This document shows positions 32,670-44,679 of a stretch of 64,000 nt of DNA, one piece after another. The notes under the pieces were generated by a model. It worked only from the letters and a program-made list of their open reading frames with translations, had not been told where the DNA came from and searched no databases. How positions within the stretch are numbered: position 1 is the first letter of the stretch; the number at the start of each line of letters is the position of its first letter. Origin of the DNA: a bacterium (GTDB taxonomy: Bacteria; Auribacterota; UBA6266); the NCBI GenBank assembly GCA_023228325.1, contig JALOBK010000001.1, positions 1,596,111 to 1,660,110 on the forward strand, written 5' to 3'. The position numbers were made by a program, and so were the translations under genes.

Positions 32670-33530
32670 ATGTCAATTAAAGAAGCTTTTAATATCTCAA
32701 AATCTGTTTGGTCTATGTCCGTAAAAATGGCCCGTAAATACCCGGTAATATTACTGCCTTTCTTTATCACGGCGATTTGTAATGCGTTGGCCCTTGCGGT
32801 GTTATACTATTTTCCCAGGAAACCGTGGTCATTGTTTTTCGCTTCGCCCATAAGAAATTTTAAGGGTGAGAAGTTCCTTCATTATCCTTCGAATTTTCTT
32901 GTCCTGCCCGAACTTTTTTATTATTTCCAGATTCTTATTATGGCTACGGTAGGCATAATTATGTTCGGAATGGCTGTCAATCTTATTTACCAGGCGAATT
33001 CCGGTAATGTTCTGCCGAGGCCTGCCGGAAGTTTCAATAAATCCGTCAGGCGTTACCTGACGCTTATAGGCATATGGGCTACGCTTTTTGTGTTGAGTTT
33101 TATAATCTTGAAGGTTCCCGCTATTATGCTTGTTAAGTTCCTTGGAGCCAAACCGATAACATTGATATTGCTCAGGATATTCTTTTATTCCGGATTTATT
33201 TTGGTAATAATAATTGAAGCCCTGCTTGTTTATGCTTATCCTGCGGCAATAATAGATAAAAAGAAATATTTTGCGTCTCTGAAAAACAGTTTTGGTTTAT
33301 CTAAACGGGTTTTTATCGCGTCGCTTATTTTAGTCGCGGCGCCGCGCTTACTGGAGGTAGGCTATATTCTTGCAAGGGGTTATATGATTCCTTTTTTTGT
33401 TAAACATGTTCCTGAGTTAAGTGTAGGGGTAATAGCATTTGGGATTGTTTTGGTGATGTTTACCGATTTTTTTGTAATATGCGCTATCACGAATCTTTAT
33501 ATACTTGCAAAAGAAACAAATGGAGAATAA
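32670..33530 (+). CDS. Integral membrane protein, function unknown
   Basis: 286 aa, ~6 predicted TM helices, no recognisable catalytic motif; preceded by ~300 bp noncoding leader. Confidence 0.5.
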   Translation: MSIKEAFNISKSVWSMSVKMARKYPVILLPFFITAICNALALAVLYYFPRKPWSLFFASPIRNFKGEKFLHYPSNFLVLPELFYYFQILIMATVGIIMFGMAVNLIYQANSGNVLPRPAGSFNKSVRRYLTLIGIWATLFVLSFIILKVPAIMLVKFLGAKPITLILLRIFFYSGFILVIIIEALLVYAYPAAIIDKKKYFASLKNSFGLSKRVFIASLILVAAPRLLEVGYILARGYMIPFFVKHVPELSVGVIAFGIVLVMFTDFFVICAITNLYILAKETNGE

Positions 33531-33577
33531 TACAGATAAATTCTAAATTCTAAGCACGAAATACTAAACAAACTAAA

Positions 33578-33940
33578 ATGATTAAAACTCAAAATTCAAA
33601 ACAATATGACTTGGAAGAAAGAACATTGGAATTTGCAAGAGAAGTTAGAAATTTTGTTAGGGAATTGCCGCAGACTTTAGCTAATATGGAAGATGGAAAG
33701 CAGTTGATAAGATCTTCAGGTTCTGTAGGGGCAAACTACATTGAATCTAATGAATCTTTAAGTAAAAAAGATTTTGCAATGAGAATAAAAATATCCCGTA
33801 AAGAAGCAAAGGAAAGTTGTTATTGGTTAAAGCTTATTAGAGCTAATACTGACAATTTAGAAAAGGAGAGAAAAAGATTAGTTCAGGAAGCACTGGAACT
33901 TACCAAAATATTTGGTTCAATAGTAGAGAAAACAAAATAA
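33578..33940 (+). CDS. Four-helix-bundle protein (family historically annotated as '23S rRNA intervening-sequence protein')
   Basis: 120 aa; 'LEFAREVRNFVRELPQTLANMEDGKQLIRSSGSVGANYIESNESLSKKDFAMRIKISRKEAKESCYWLKL' matches the family pattern. Confidence 0.8.
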   Translation: MIKTQNSKQYDLEERTLEFAREVRNFVRELPQTLANMEDGKQLIRSSGSVGANYIESNESLSKKDFAMRIKISRKEAKESCYWLKLIRANTDNLEKERKRLVQEALELTKIFGSIVEKTK

Positions 33941-34017
33941 TGTTTAGGATATTTGAGTTTAGAATTTATTTAGAATTTTGATATTAGGATTTTGAATTTA
34001 TAATAGGATGGGGGTTT

Positions 34018-34890
34018 ATGAAAACAGATAATAAGAAAAGGTATTACGGGAAAATATTATACGGGTTGTTTATAGTGTCCGTGTTGTTTGTGATTGGCTG
34101 CGGCGGCGGAGATTACGAGGCGGAAAAACTTTATTGGAAAGCCAATAAAATGTATGTCCAGCTGCTTAAAGACCCGCAAAACACAAAGCCGCAGGACTAT
34201 GAAAATATTATAGTCGCTTATCAGAAAATTGTTTTTAAATTTCCCCGCTGGGCCTTTGCGCCGAGAGCGCAGTTGACGATAGGGCAGCTTTACGCTATGC
34301 AGAATGATTCCGTGAAGGCAAAGACGGAATACGAAAAAGTTTTGAAACATTTCCCCAATGACCAGAATTCGTGCGCCGGCGCGTTATTCGCTATCGGAAA
34401 AATATATGAGTTTGATAACAAGTGGGATAAGGCCCTTGAAAATTACAACAAAATAGTTTCCGATTATCCCAATACGTATGCGGCATTCCAGGTTCCTCTT
34501 TATATAGCGCAGTATTATAAAACCAAGGGATTGGAACAGAAAGCTCAAAATGCTTATAAAGATGCCATAAGCCGTTATTCAAAGATAATAGAAGAACATC
34601 CCAACACTTTTGCGGCTCTTACGGCGCAGAATTTCACAGTTGCCGCCCTGATTGAACAGCAGAAATGGAATGAGGTTCTCGAAAATCTGAGAAAGCTTGC
34701 CTCTTCATATCCCGGCACTCCTGTTGCCGCCGAGTCATTGAACACAATGGCCGGCATTTATGTTAATCAGTTGAATGAACCTGAAAAAGGCGCTGAAATC
34801 CTGAAAGAACTGCTTGAAAAATTTCCTCAGATAGGAGCCAGGGAATTAATAGAAGAAAAAATTACAACTCTTACATCGGGTAAGAATTGA
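34018..34890 (+). CDS. TPR-repeat lipoprotein (BamD/YbgF-like)
   Basis: Lipobox 'VLFVIGCGGG'; several TPR-like repeats ('AIGKIYEFDNKWDKALENYNKIVSDYPNT'); 290 aa; immediately upstream of exosortase. Confidence 0.65.
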   Translation: MKTDNKKRYYGKILYGLFIVSVLFVIGCGGGDYEAEKLYWKANKMYVQLLKDPQNTKPQDYENIIVAYQKIVFKFPRWAFAPRAQLTIGQLYAMQNDSVKAKTEYEKVLKHFPNDQNSCAGALFAIGKIYEFDNKWDKALENYNKIVSDYPNTYAAFQVPLYIAQYYKTKGLEQKAQNAYKDAISRYSKIIEEHPNTFAALTAQNFTVAALIEQQKWNEVLENLRKLASSYPGTPVAAESLNTMAGIYVNQLNEPEKGAEILKELLEKFPQIGARELIEEKITTLTSGKN

Positions 34891-36336: not shown

Positions 36337-36437
36337 GCTACTTGACAAATCACAAAAAATAAGGTAAGTATTGACAAATCTTTTTTTTATTCAATAAGTT
36401 GATAGTCAACCATACAAGTATAGAAAAGGAGGAATTC

Positions 36438-37064
36438 ATGTTAAAGAAGCTCTTGTTAGTAGTAACAAGCTTGTTGATTGCCACAAGCGTCAGCGCTTTC
36501 AGCTTTGATTCCGGAACAGAAGGTTGGACGCATGACAGCGGATGGGGAACAGGTATTACGGCTGATCCCGCCTGGTCCGGCTCTATGGATCACACAGGTA
36601 ATGGCGGTGGAGTTATTACAAGCGCGGTAGCATTGCAGGCAGATGGCAGCGGCGGCGCGTTGAATTTAATGTATGCAACGCCTCAGGATTTAAGCTCTTA
36701 TTCATTAATTAAGGGTTATGTCCAGGTTGATACAAACCCTATTCATAATGTGGGCGGTCCGGGTTATGGTATCGGCGCCAGATTGCATATCAAGACAGGT
36801 GCCGGGTGGACAACCTCTATGGGTGACTGGATTAATCTTGAAACAGCGAATACATGGCATGAACTAACGTTGAATTTAGCCGGTATTCCCAACCTAAGTG
36901 ATGTCAGGGCAATCGGAGTTCATATCGGTGATGGCGGAGCATCAACATGGTCGGGCAATTTATTTGTTGATGATATAAATGTTGTTCCTGAACCCGGCAG
37001 TTTGATTATGCTTGGGGCAGGGCTTCTCGGTTTAATCGGTTTTGCGGCAAGAAAAAGAAAATAA
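36438..37064 (+). CDS. PEP-CTERM sorting-domain protein
   Basis: Signal peptide; C-terminus 'VPEPGSLIMLGAGLLGLIGFAARKRK'; AGGAGG RBS; paralogous to 50188..50799 ('FDSGTEGW', 'NLSDVRAIGVHI'). Confidence 0.85.
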   Translation: MLKKLLLVVTSLLIATSVSAFSFDSGTEGWTHDSGWGTGITADPAWSGSMDHTGNGGGVITSAVALQADGSGGALNLMYATPQDLSSYSLIKGYVQVDTNPIHNVGGPGYGIGARLHIKTGAGWTTSMGDWINLETANTWHELTLNLAGIPNLSDVRAIGVHIGDGGASTWSGNLFVDDINVVPEPGSLIMLGAGLLGLIGFAARKRK

Positions 37065-37306
37065 TGTAATATAGTTCACCTCCTATGAAATTGGGCTGAA
37101 GCGCATAACGTGCTTTGGCCCAATTTGTTATGAGATAAAAATCATTCCGGTGTCGCAAATTCATACATCAAAGCATACCAGATACATACGAGATACAACG
37201 ACACGTGACGATATATACAATATATTATTTCAAAATAATTTGTCGTCTACAAAACAACAATTACACTTGACATAATAGTTATAATATGGTAAAAAGATAC
37301 TTAAAT

Positions 37307-37326
37307 AAATCGAAACGTTTCGATTT
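37307..37326 (+). promoter_or_regulatory. Candidate LacI-family operator: 20-bp perfect CG-centred palindrome
   Basis: 'aaatcgaaacgtttcgattt' in the leader of PEP-CTERM gene 37350, ~23 nt upstream of ATG, just before the RBS. Confidence 0.4.
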
Positions 37327-37349
37327 AGTAGAATAAAGGGGGTGAACGG

Positions 37350-37961
37350 ATGAAACAAATAGCAATTATAATTGCTGTGCTTGCTTTTTCATTGAGTTCT
37401 TATGCAAGCGCGAACCTGCTTGTTAACGGTGATTTTGAGCTTACCGGTGAAGATGGTCATCTGACGGGCTGGACAATTGACTACAATCAGAATATCGCAG
37501 AAGCTCAGGATAATCCTGAATCAGGCGCCTGGCACGCAAGAAACTATAACGATGGGGGTATGTATCAGGATGTTTCAATTACCGGTGGAATGACTTATGA
37601 TATTACTGGATATGCTTATATTCCTTCCGGGACAGGCGGCAGCCCTTGGGGAACATATATAGGGGTCAAGTTTTTGAGAGCTAATGGAACCACAGCAACG
37701 GGTGGTAGTTTTCAAGTTGATATGCAGGGTTTACCAAGGGATGTATACAATTTAGCTGATACTGGTTGGGTTGTAGCTCCTTCTGATGCAGTAACCGCGA
37801 GAGTAAGGTTTGGAACATGGTCGAATGCTCCGTATGAACCTGTTGCTCCGACAGATTTTGATAATTTCTCTTTAGTGGCGGTTCCTGAACCGACTAGTTT
37901 AATGTTGTTAGGATTAGGCTTATTCGGAATCATAGGTTTCGCGGCAAAGAAGAAGAAATAA
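37350..37961 (+). CDS. PEP-CTERM sorting-domain protein with CBM-like N-terminal module
   Basis: Signal peptide then 'ASANLLVNGDFELTGEDGHLTGW'; C-terminus 'VPEPTSLMLLGLGLFGIIGFAAKKKK'. Confidence 0.85.
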   Translation: MKQIAIIIAVLAFSLSSYASANLLVNGDFELTGEDGHLTGWTIDYNQNIAEAQDNPESGAWHARNYNDGGMYQDVSITGGMTYDITGYAYIPSGTGGSPWGTYIGVKFLRANGTTATGGSFQVDMQGLPRDVYNLADTGWVVAPSDAVTARVRFGTWSNAPYEPVAPTDFDNFSLVAVPEPTSLMLLGLGLFGIIGFAAKKKK

Positions 37962-43152: not shown

Positions 43153-44541
43153 ATGGTAAAAGACATATTGTTTGATTTTAACAATTCGCTTGCGGATATT
43201 GTCGGTCGGGATGATGGATTCGGCAGAGAAGATATTGAATCAATGGATGGAAAAATATCAGGAGCGATTTCAAGGATAGAGACTATCCGGAAAGAGGGGA
43301 ATCCCGGTTTTGTAAGACTTCCTTTCAGCCGCGATGTCGCTTCTGAAATAAGCGCGTTTGCCGAATCCATAAGGGATAACTATGAAAACTTTGTTGTTTT
43401 GGGTATAGGAGGGTCGGCGCTTGGAAACATAGCTTTAAACACGGCGTTAACGGATCCCTATAAACGCAAAAAAGGGTTTCCGAAACTTTTTGTGATGGAT
43501 AATATTGATCCTGAGATATTCAGTTCTTTGCTTGAAGGGATCGATTTAAAGAAAACGGTATTTAATGTAATAACAAAATCCGGAGGCACATCCGAGACAA
43601 TGTCCCAGTTTCTTATTGTTAAGTCGATGCTGGAAAAAATGTACGGGTCAAAATACAAAGAACACATTATAGCGACAACAGATCCTGAAAAAGGGGATTT
43701 AAAGACTATTGCAGAAGAAGAAGGATATAAAACTTTTTATATTCCGCAAAATGTCGGAGGAAGGTTTTCAGTGCTTTCTCCTGTGGGGCTTTTGTCAGCT
43801 GCGATAACCGGTATTGATATTCATGAGCTTCTTGCCGGAGCAGAGAAAATGGAAACACGCTGCGGGGAACGGGATTATTTTCTGAACCCGGCCTATATGT
43901 ATGCCATACTGCACTATATTCTCGATGTTAAAAAGAATAAAAAGATTTCGGTTATGATGCCTTATTCAACAAAATTGAGAGATATTGCCGATTGGTACAG
44001 GCAGCTTTGGGCCGAGAGCCTGGGCAAAACAAGGATTGTGGAAGGGAATTCGCTTTTTGTCGGGCAAACTCCCGTCAAAGCGCTTGGGGCGACTGACCAG
44101 CATTCGCAGGTCCAACTGTATGTGGAAGGCCCTAACGATAAATATTTCGTATTTGTCGGAGTAAAAAAATTCGCCAAAGACATTAAAATCCCCGCCGGTT
44201 TTGAAAGCAAAAAAAGTATAAATTACTTATCCGGGCATACTATGGGCGAACTTTTCCATGCTGAACAGAAAGCGACAACGCTTGCTTTAACAAAAGCAAA
44301 ACGCCCTAATTCGACAATATGGCTTCCTGAAATATCTGAAAATTCAATCGGGCAGTTGTTATATATGCTTGAGCTTGCCACCGCCTTTGCGGGCTATCTT
44401 CTTGAAATAGATCCTTTTAATCAGCCCGGTGTTGAGGAAGGGAAGAAATTGACATATGCGTTGATGGGGCGCCCAGGTTTTGAGGAAAAGAAAGCGGAAA
44501 TAGAGAAAATAGGGAAACCGGATCCAAGGTATATTATATAA
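43153..44541 (+). CDS. pgi: Glucose-6-phosphate isomerase (short bacterial/archaeal type)
   Basis: 'GIGGSALG' and 'GGRFSVLSPVGLLSAAITGIDI' SIS-domain motifs; ~460 aa; GGGAGG RBS before ATG 43153. Confidence 0.85.
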   Translation: MVKDILFDFNNSLADIVGRDDGFGREDIESMDGKISGAISRIETIRKEGNPGFVRLPFSRDVASEISAFAESIRDNYENFVVLGIGGSALGNIALNTALTDPYKRKKGFPKLFVMDNIDPEIFSSLLEGIDLKKTVFNVITKSGGTSETMSQFLIVKSMLEKMYGSKYKEHIIATTDPEKGDLKTIAEEEGYKTFYIPQNVGGRFSVLSPVGLLSAAITGIDIHELLAGAEKMETRCGERDYFLNPAYMYAILHYILDVKKNKKISVMMPYSTKLRDIADWYRQLWAESLGKTRIVEGNSLFVGQTPVKALGATDQHSQVQLYVEGPNDKYFVFVGVKKFAKDIKIPAGFESKKSINYLSGHTMGELFHAEQKATTLALTKAKRPNSTIWLPEISENSIGQLLYMLELATAFAGYLLEIDPFNQPGVEEGKKLTYALMGRPGFEEKKAEIEKIGKPDPRYII

Positions 44542-44679
44542 AAAGGGGGGAGTTGCTGAGTTACTAAGTATATTATTGTAGAAATCAAAACTTAATAACT
44601 TAATAACAAATAACTCAATAACTAAATAATAACCTGTTTTTCAAGTCTTGACTGTCAGAAAACAGGATTATAGTATTAG

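Follow-up and report, generated by a model that had tools for sequence, protein, structure and literature searches.

The 64,000-nucleotide stretch of Auribacterota DNA analysed here (the window; contig JALOBK010000001.1) raises the question of how a gene for a 120-residue four-helix-bundle protein (33578..33940, + strand), assigned by profile searches to the S23p/IVP/Avd-like families PF05635 and TIGR02436, came to lie between two translationally coupled genes of an exosortase/exopolysaccharide (EPS) operon. A sequence-only reading of the window had noticed AT-rich inverted repeats on either side of the gene and had suggested that the whole might be a small inserted cassette bracketed by them. 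That central claim stands, with the empty sites of relatives, the local character of the repeats and the age of the cassette all in agreement. We further think it probable, though well short of certain, that the cassette is a selfish mobile element of the intervening-sequence (IVS) type, known from 23S rRNA and residing here in the spacer of a protein-coding operon.

Among named organisms, Candidatus Auribacterota/Aureabacteria stand nearest to the source of the window. A comparison with relatives, which the earlier reading had proposed, yielded a clean before-and-after set of empty, filled and decayed sites, and the cassette is missing from the loci closest to the window, which marks it as an insertion. 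In L086-L091, which come from several sequencing runs and whose upstream protein is 98% identical to that of the window, the site is empty, with 5 nt between the upstream stop and the start of the tetratricopeptide repeat (TPR) gene downstream in L086 and L088-L090, and with overlapping called genes in L087 and L091. The site is also empty in L085 (upstream protein 87% identical, genes overlapping) and in L092 (51% identical, 5-nt gap), and no four-helix-bundle gene was found at this site in any of L085-L092. A full cassette occupies the same position in L002, a close relative of the empty L092 in which the upstream gene is partial. L083 and L084 (upstream protein 88% identical) hold a 213-nt remnant that has both arms and no open reading frame (ORF); at L083:3874-4086, as in L084, the arms surround a GC-richer core of ~110 nt that is unrelated to the four-helix-bundle gene. 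The L083 remnant folds as a hairpin (z = -3.1), and its core holds a small palindrome of its own, CAATGCATTG. Together these loci show the insertion of ~488 nt between the two coupled host genes and, in the L083/L084 relative, the decay of the cassette to an ORF-less hairpin.

Comparison of the junctions in the empty L086, L085 and L092 with those in the filled L002 and L083 places the inserted block at 33526..34013 (+ strand, ~488 nt), in what is otherwise a gap of 5-11 nt between the coupled genes. It abuts ...ACGGAG or ATGGAG on the side of the upstream gene and GTTTATG on that of the TPR gene: with the insert in parentheses, the empty L092 junction reads GAAACGGAG-GCTTGAT-GTTTATG, the filled L002 junction reads GAAACGGAG-(AATAATACAGAT...ACATATGGAG)-GTTTATG and the window junction reads ACAAATGGAG-(AATAATACAG...GGATGGGG)-GTTTATG. 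The upstream gene, which encodes a membrane protein (32670-33530 in the ORF list), terminates at a TAA (33528..33530, +) drawn from the insert's left end, whereas at the empty sites the stop is another codon in other sequence (TGA in L086 and L092), and in L002 the upstream ORF extends to a TAA within the first heptamers of the cassette. At the insert's right edge, direct reading identifies a Shine-Dalgarno (SD)-like AGGATGGGGG at 34005..34014 (+) for the TPR lipoprotein gene (34018-34890), and the right-edge sequence ATGGAGGTTTATG is present in the filled L002 and L083 and missing from the empty L086. From this filled-versus-empty comparison, the insert supplies both the upstream stop and the downstream SD. 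The left arm of the window has stops in all three frames. The search for target-site duplications that the sequence-only reading had advised gave a divided answer, in that (C/T)GGAG stands at both window junctions and no excess of such duplications exists family-wide. The repeated letters could represent a 5-nt duplication or merely a re-created SD, and they are not readable as a target duplication because the same letters serve as a ribosome-binding site.

All four motifs quoted by the earlier reading were recovered from the window sequence, aaattctaaattctaa at 33538-33553 and ttagaatttatttagaatttt at 33959-33979, caaaattcaaaa at 33590-33601 within the gene's first codons, and ttttgaattt at 33990-33999. 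The mutual inversion of the flanks proved stronger than had been noted: local alignment of the 70 nt upstream with the reverse complement of the 110 nt downstream scored 36, against 16.4 ± 2.6 for shuffled sequences, and none of 1000 shuffles scored as high. An inverted-repeat search delimited 37-nt arms at 33536-33572 and 33965-34001 that are 78% complementary. The spacers flanking the gene are AT-rich (26-29% GC), and the objection that such repeats might be frequent low-complexity sequence genome-wide failed in a search of the 64-kb window, where they are local. Within it, AAATTCTAA occurs twice, both times inside the left arm, and the two-unit heptamer pattern TTTAGNNTTTAGNNTTT, allowed up to two mismatches, has 15 matches, eight of which fall in the two arms.

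Each arm is an array whose period is 7 nt, which the earlier reading did not mention. The left arm (33536..33607, +) is A-rich and G-poor, runs AAATTCT AAATTCT AAGCACG AAATACT AAACAAA ... AAAACTC AAAATTC AAAACAA, and continues through the start codon and the first 10 codons of the gene. The right arm (33937..34001, +) is T-rich and C-poor, starts at the stop codon and is built of the inverted units TTTAGGA, TTTGAGT, TTTAGAA, TTTTGAT, TTAGGAT, TTTTGAA and others. Autocorrelation at lag 7 reaches 0.51 in the left arm and 0.49 in the right, compared with ~0.3 at other lags, and Tandem Repeats Finder reports period 7 at 33537-33553, 33584-33602 and 33968-34004.

Folding of 33525-34012 as RNA pairs 33536-33607 with 33937-34001 in both the minimum-free-energy (MFE) and the centroid structure. 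The predicted stem comprises 53 bp (41 A-U, 8 G-C and 4 G-U), with the AUG bordering an internal loop of 11 nt and the stop codon at the stem top; the same arm-to-arm pairing is predicted, in MFE and centroid alike, for the cassette at L027. No promoter-like or terminator-like site was predicted in the cassette, and no SD-like motif precedes the ATG, where the region from -18 to -4 reads AATACTAAACAAACT. Searches of the arms against known RNA families gave no match; a lone weak hit to snoRNA U54 (E = 0.025), which lies inside the upstream gene, was rejected as chance. Third positions of codons 1-8 have a conservation of 0.68, compared with 0.51 ± 0.14 elsewhere in the gene, and the K8 codon is AAA in 91% of sequences, compared with 65% for comparable codons elsewhere, which suggests a nucleotide-level constraint on the codons that overlap the array.

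The encoded protein scores 50.1 bits against PF05635 (cut-off 33.8) and 69.7 bits against TIGR02436 (cut-off 24). Its AlphaFold model, computed as a monomer (predicted local distance difference test, pLDDT, 90.4), has helices at 12-29, 34-58, 63-86 and 92-119; residues 1-8, which are encoded by the in-gene part of the left array, are disordered in the model. Foldseek ranked BT_0352 (2RLD) first at TM 0.73-0.81, then Xcc0516 (2GSC), and then Avd of diversity-generating retroelements (DGRs; 4DWL and 8UB7) at TM 0.68-0.75 with a sequence identity of 10-12%. A phmmer comparison matches 2RLD at 1e-12, and this structure was deposited with five chains. The conserved family motif has been described as G..R...S...N..E (PMC3936711). 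In the window protein it takes the form G40-x4-R45-x3-S49-x3-N53-x2-E56, where the G-x4-R spacing is two residues longer than the published G-x2-R; S49, N53 and E56 are invariant in 28 homologues, and position 45 is R or K. Across orthologous pairs dN/dS is 0.05-0.22, the value for the window versus L002 being 0.22, and these ratios show purifying selection on the four-helix-bundle protein. A role in defence or in phage biology was considered and rejected, as PADLOC and PHROG gave no matches and no viral contigs were found in IMG/VR with the protein's peptide patterns, one weak phage hit notwithstanding. A DGR remnant was likewise rejected, there being no reverse transcriptase within -6.5 to +10 kb of the window gene.

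The age of the cassette relative to its surroundings is apparent from L002, which comes from a distant Auribacterota genome. The window and L002 agree fully in the left spacer (100% identity) and to 92% in the gene (28 differences; synonymous divergence, dS, 0.23), and their right arms have diverged mainly through gain and loss of units, whereas the tpr, xrt and epsI genes next to the cassette have reached saturation at synonymous sites (proportion of synonymous differences, pS, 0.75-0.85). Substitution counts of this kind show a cassette that is far younger than the host genes surrounding it in L002 and that has spread horizontally. The distribution of the cassette, which is present in the window, L083 and L002 and not in L086, L085 and L092, clashes with the similarity of the flanking genes.

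In the TPR lipoprotein, two unrelated forms of the signal peptide occur, as a comparison of window 34018-34095 with L086:3864-3940 and L085 shows. One form, MKTDNKKRYYGKILYGLF..., is found at cassette-bearing loci, with a diverged, shorter version in the distant empty L092; the other, MKKIINNLSLVAVAV..., is found in the empty L086 and L085, and homology between the two resumes at the lipobox. The junction region has been replaced at least once, and we regard it as a recombination hot spot because the presence pattern is incongruent and the signal peptide differs between loci. Between the window and L086 (32670-35716), dS is 0.16 for the membrane gene, 0.29 for the TPR gene and 1.1 for the exosortase gene. 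The pattern suggests a recombination mosaic within the EPS/exosortase cluster.

Homologues of the window protein number in the thousands, the taxonomic labels being those of the records, which are nearly all metagenome-assembled genomes (MAGs). The best 120 homologues are 62-100% identical and carry the labels Candidate Phyla Radiation (CPR), Omnitrophota, Phycisphaerae and Methanophagales, and those at 58-76% identity come from CPR, Omnitrophota, Planctomycetota, Chloroflexota, Desulfobacterota, Nitrospirota and DPANN. When one genome was scanned for each species, with 8-residue peptides of the window protein, 80 loci at 58-76% identity emerged, a sample skewed to close relatives because of the peptide queries; one of the 80 derives from a Pacearchaeota MAG. 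At most loci the gene has (A)AAYYCTAAA... on its upstream side and ...TTTAGRRTTT on its downstream side. The z of the inverted-repeat score is 6.9 in the median and exceeds 3 in 54 of 77 loci, autocorrelation of the arms peaks at lags 7, 14 and 21 on both sides, and the median element length is 488 nt. The copies at L027 and L029, 39 kb apart on one contig, are 95-100% identical over ~545 nt with the termini AAATCCGAA...TTCGGATTTAAA, and their flanks are unrelated; L013 and L052, both from one MAG, repeat the pattern. These pairs show a family that is multi-copy in some genomes and has sharp ends. Target-site duplications were no more frequent in the cassettes' own flanks than in control flanks at k = 3-8 (64 loci, ±3-nt boundary slack), and none was found in L027/L029.

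The orientation of the subfamily cassettes follows that of their hosts. Of the upstream neighbours, 66 of 71 point the same way as the cassette (p = 1.2e-14), as do 62 of 75 downstream neighbours, and not one cassette among the subfamily loci runs antisense to the genes on both sides. The upstream stop precedes the ATG by a median of 53 nt and falls inside the arm in 24 of 66 loci, and an SD-like motif precedes the ATG in just four of the 80. The CTAAA and TTTAG units put TAA or TAG in all three frames, and the left arm closes all frames in 42 of the 80 loci, where 19 are expected. The sequence-only reading had described the family as usually found inside rRNA intervening sequences. For the present subfamily this description fails: 0 of 80 loci are in rRNA, and the window at 33300-34200 also lacks any rRNA match.

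Some members depart from the usual layout. At L027:2950-3354 and L029:2950-3354, and in the protein P0010, ATA stands in place of the usual ATG, and the ORF opens at an in-frame ATG farther upstream and runs through the heptamer array (MLNPKLEILNSKQAQ...), which is there read as an N-terminal extension of the ORF. Arrays of the downstream type, TTTAG..., stand upstream of the gene in L009, L030, L043, L045 and L058, and at other loci the gene is followed by a CTAAA array and then directly by a TTTAG array; these arrays resemble neighbouring ORF-less hairpins or elements in tandem. Four loci of Planctomycetota (L024, L039, L056 and L061), whose proteins are 65-71% identical to that of the window, have a downstream TTTGTAA/TTTGTTA array, no inverted array within 70 nt upstream, and a common upstream sequence, GTGGCTAAAAATAAAA...ATTGAGAA. 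This Planctomycetota form may be a variant with its own expression signals.

Distant members of the family carry other units, which were read by eye for the second copies in L010 and L057 and obtained by inverted-repeat search for the rest. The second gene of L010 (37% identical to the window protein) is accompanied by a TAAAATTAGCAA-type inverted repeat that is not clearly 7-nt, and that of L057 (32%) by GTAAAAC / GTTTTAC. In Nostoc flagelliforme CCNUN1 (40%) the arms are (AATTCAA)4.4 / (TTTTGAA)4.4 and are complementary at 31 of 31 positions, and Nostoc punctiforme PCC 73102 (36%) has GTCGGAG / CTCCGAC. Planktothrix agardhii (42%) has ACGATTT / AAATCGT in 76-nt arms, the element lying between DISARM drmD and BREX pglX, and in Anabaena cylindrica PCC 7122 (39%) AAGTAAA arrays lie between cas2 and cas1. 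Period (7 nt) and inversion do not vary, while the unit sequence is free, which amounts to covariation at the level of the unit. The three copies in N. flagelliforme were rejected as independent insertions, for they lie within a larger duplicated plasmid segment. On pANACY.01 of Anabaena cylindrica PCC 7122 (L097), the family gene is antisense to both cas2 and cas1, and this locus and p1 of Planktothrix agardhii (L099) contain several nested inverted heptamer arrays, as if elements had inserted beside or into each other. On pNPUN01 of Nostoc punctiforme (L096:913-1142), the cassette lies directly 5' of a gene for the element excision factor xisH, possibly by coincidence.

How such a cassette could be tolerated and propagated is a matter of RNA processing and mode of movement, both of which we infer. 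An IVS-type cassette would be transcribed solely by read-through from the upstream host gene. Its arrays would zip, in the transcript, into an A-U-rich stem of ~53 bp that loops out the ORF, a stem that is possible in several registers because of the 7-nt periodicity. By analogy with the 23S IVS of Coxiella, Leptospira and Salmonella, this stem would be a substrate for RNase III; alternatively or additionally, it would bring the two host cistrons back together. Through cutting of the stem or rejoining of the cistrons, the insertion would therefore be tolerated between translationally coupled genes. The protein, homologous to the nucleic-acid-binding pentamer Avd, probably binds the heptamer arrays as DNA or RNA, and array binding would serve the spread or retention of the element. 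A classical DDE transposase is disfavoured because target duplications are lacking and the arms are homogenised with each other. The sole RNA-specific hint is a slight advantage in stability of the sense over the antisense duplex, seen in 51 of 77 loci (p = 8e-5).

Several findings weigh against this account. The whole-cassette fold barely beats shuffled sequences in the window (z = -1.96). In no more than 5 of 79 loci does a left arm find its best partner in the right arm of the same cassette (the median rank of that arm is 31), U:G mismatches do not significantly outnumber C:A mismatches (89 versus 78) and thus give no wobble asymmetry, and the unit variants AGCAC/GTGCT (versus ATATC/GATAT) do not co-occur, although the numbers are small. 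Complementarity within the subfamily is attributable to the shared unit core, because fine covariation between arms is lacking, and such a core is no less expected of a protein-binding array than of an RNA stem. The 64-kb window holds a single copy of the cassette gene, and 20-30% of family members are without clear arms, for example the Planctomycetota loci L024, L039, L056 and L061. Finally, that two distant Auribacterota lineages carry the cassette at one site could be due to an exchange of alleles by recombination and not to targeting driven by the element.

The rival that survives best turns some of these points to its own account. It holds that the cassette is a DNA transposon of the foldback type, or one resembling a MITE (miniature transposable element with inverted repeats), that is moved in trans, its arrays being the sites of a transposase encoded elsewhere, the gene a passenger or accessory and the RNA stem a by-product. 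Terminal inverted arrays, sharp ends, multiple copies and ORF-less derivatives would all be at home in such an element, as would the want of locus-specific covariation and of a sense-strand wobble signature, the unit core being conserved in the subfamily as protein-binding sites are. We nevertheless consider it unlikely. Target-site duplications were not found when own flanks were compared with control flanks (k = 3-8), and no transposase is present among the called neighbours of the window locus. The linkage of ORF and arms persists across phyla and even domains, under purifying selection of the protein, which is difficult to square with a passenger that would require a matching transposase in each host. 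The orientation bias (66 of 71 loci) would call for a further assumption, namely selection for expression.

We place somewhat less credence in autonomous movement by a pentamer of the four-helix-bundle protein, acting alone or with a host reverse transcriptase and, on the analogy of Avd, using the excised stem-loop RNA as an intermediate. The protein is the element's sole gene, is maintained at 58-76% identity across phyla with dN/dS of 0.05-0.22, and has a fold that matches Avd of the DGR ribonucleoprotein at TM about 0.7. The missing target duplications are compatible with this mode of movement, and the perfectly homogenised arms of Nostoc speak for it in that their identity in complement at 31 of 31 positions suggests that one arm was copied from the other. 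Against these points, no catalytic motif is known in the four-helix-bundle fold, the genes from -6.5 to +10 kb around the window copy include no reverse transcriptase, and searches for viral-contig, PHROG and PADLOC matches returned none. Many carriers, moreover, are small CPR and DPANN genomes, which probably lack reverse transcriptases. The idea that the gene is an ordinary resident of the host, its AT-rich spacers inverted by chance and no element present, can appeal to the single copy in the window, the 26-29% GC of the flanks and a fold z of only -1.96, yet it is scarcely credible and is refuted by the empty sites in the closest relatives and the family-wide architecture, which recurs in dozens of unrelated contexts, with an inverted-repeat score that 0 of 1000 shuffles reach and a cassette dS far below that of its neighbours.

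A broader proposal extends the IVS-type reading, and we think it doubtful. It holds that cassettes with heptamer arrays form one huge cross-domain class of minimal autonomous mobile elements, that the 23S IVS are copies that landed in rRNA, that the hairpins of the cyanobacterial short tandemly repeated repetitive sequences (STRRs) are ORF-less remnants, and that a 120-residue pentamer and its arrays suffice for movement that is independent of a DDE enzyme and free of duplications. Movement in such a class may be RNA-mediated or hairpin-primed, which would keep the arms mutually identical. The present data suggest a common origin of rRNA IVS, cyanobacterial STRR hairpins and Avd-like proteins.

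The genes from -6.5 to +10 kb around the cassette belong to Pfam families of glycosyltransferases, TPR, exosortase, EpsI, PEP-CTERM, LacI, SAM_HAT and PGI. After the exosortase/EpsI pair come several small proteins of the PEP-CTERM kind and a LacI-type regulator (36399-37961, and in the downstream genes of L001), which confirms the exosortase-sorting context of the host operon. Farther along the window, at 44585-44629, an intergenic tandem array of ~8-nt units (AACTTAAT / AACTAAAT) in ~5 copies lies 3' of a gene that ends near 44541; it has neither an inverted partner nor a four-helix-bundle gene nearby.

Since the early 1990s, 23S rRNA genes have been known to harbour IVS that carry an S23p ORF, and the nature of these IVS, their spread and the role of their protein are not known to have been settled. 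'Four helix bundle protein' is among the commonest unexplained annotations in the genomes of uncultured bacteria, and PF05635 genes have been reported in CPR rRNA insertions. The present locus shows the architecture of the rRNA IVS (ORF, terminal stem, heptamers, no SD) to be that of a general portable cassette residing mostly in operon spacers. Cultured carriers exist in Nostoc punctiforme PCC 73102, N. flagelliforme CCNUN1 and Anabaena cylindrica PCC 7122, which makes the old question testable. PF05635 genes were seen earlier inside cas loci (PMC3936711). The cassettes split operons for CRISPR-cas, DISARM/BREX and EPS, and annotators should not assign them to the surrounding pathway. A literature search, which covered few subscription journals, found no extra-ribosomal four-helix-bundle cassettes with heptamer arms and no link of STRRs to the PF05635 family, and novelty is not proven by it.

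Among known systems, the eukaryotic Foldback transposons have long terminal inverted repeats made of short tandem units, variable in length between copies; unlike the cassette, they are eukaryotic and much larger, and their sequence and proteins are unrelated. Closer in size are the Correia elements (also Neisseria miniature insertion sequences, NEMIS) of Neisseria and the enterobacterial repetitive intergenic consensus (ERIC) elements, small intergenic elements with terminal inverted repeats that lie in operons, are co-transcribed and form long hairpins that are RNase substrates. The cassette resembles these MITEs in being small, in its terminal inverted repeats and in its insertion within an operon, but they are not known to carry a gene, they duplicate their target on insertion (TA for Correia) and their range is limited to narrow taxa, whereas the cassette has a conserved gene, no duplication and a range that crosses phyla.

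In a survey of DGR neighbourhoods, PF05635 was the most common Pfam family, and its resemblance to Avd was remarked on by the authors (PMC10053308). The cassette protein shares a homologous four-helix-bundle fold with this DGR accessory protein (TM 0.68-0.75), but near the window gene there is no reverse transcriptase and no template/variable repeat pair, and inverted heptamer arrays are not known to flank Avd genes. The STRRs of cyanobacteria are reportedly found even inside an RNase P RNA gene, going by the title of a 1997 report by Vioque. These tandem repeats of 7 bp can fold into hairpins and occur in spacers within operons, that of hupS-hupL among them, and they have been proposed to act in the stability of transcripts or in the coupling of translation (PMC2670836). 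Similar to them are the ORF-less L083 derivative and, in Nostoc, the perfect (AATTCAA)n / (TTTTGAA)n arms, but STRRs were described without a gene, and the cassette carries one, with other unit sequences and in a non-cyanobacterial host. Because host and unit sequence differ, the likeness is one of mode of working and not of membership, and we treat the STRR link as a lead and not as a result.

The closest counterpart is the 23S IVS. That of Coxiella is a 428-nt selfish element with an S23p ORF, a 28-bp terminal stem, a poor SD and tandem heptamers (GACAGAT) of variable number before the ORF; RNase III cuts it in vitro at the first repeat, as mapped by rapid amplification of cDNA ends (RACE), and its ORF was reported to be decaying and untranslated (PMC4990558). 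The same paper recalls an older idea in which the IVS is a mobile element whose ORF serves mobility (PMC4990558). Like the 23S IVS of Leptospira, Coxiella burnetii, Xanthomonas and Brucella, the cassette belongs to a class of ~430-490 nt with a single PF05635 ORF, encloses that ORF between terminal inverted repeats (here a predicted 53-bp stem), has variable-number tandem heptamers just 5' of the ORF and has a poor or absent SD. The length and shape of its modelled stem are compatible with RNase III excision. It differs from them in occupying a 5-11-nt spacer between protein genes, 0 of 80 related loci being in rRNA, and from the Coxiella ORF in the purifying selection on its protein. The element misses the location that defines an IVS, yet behaves like one in every respect examined.

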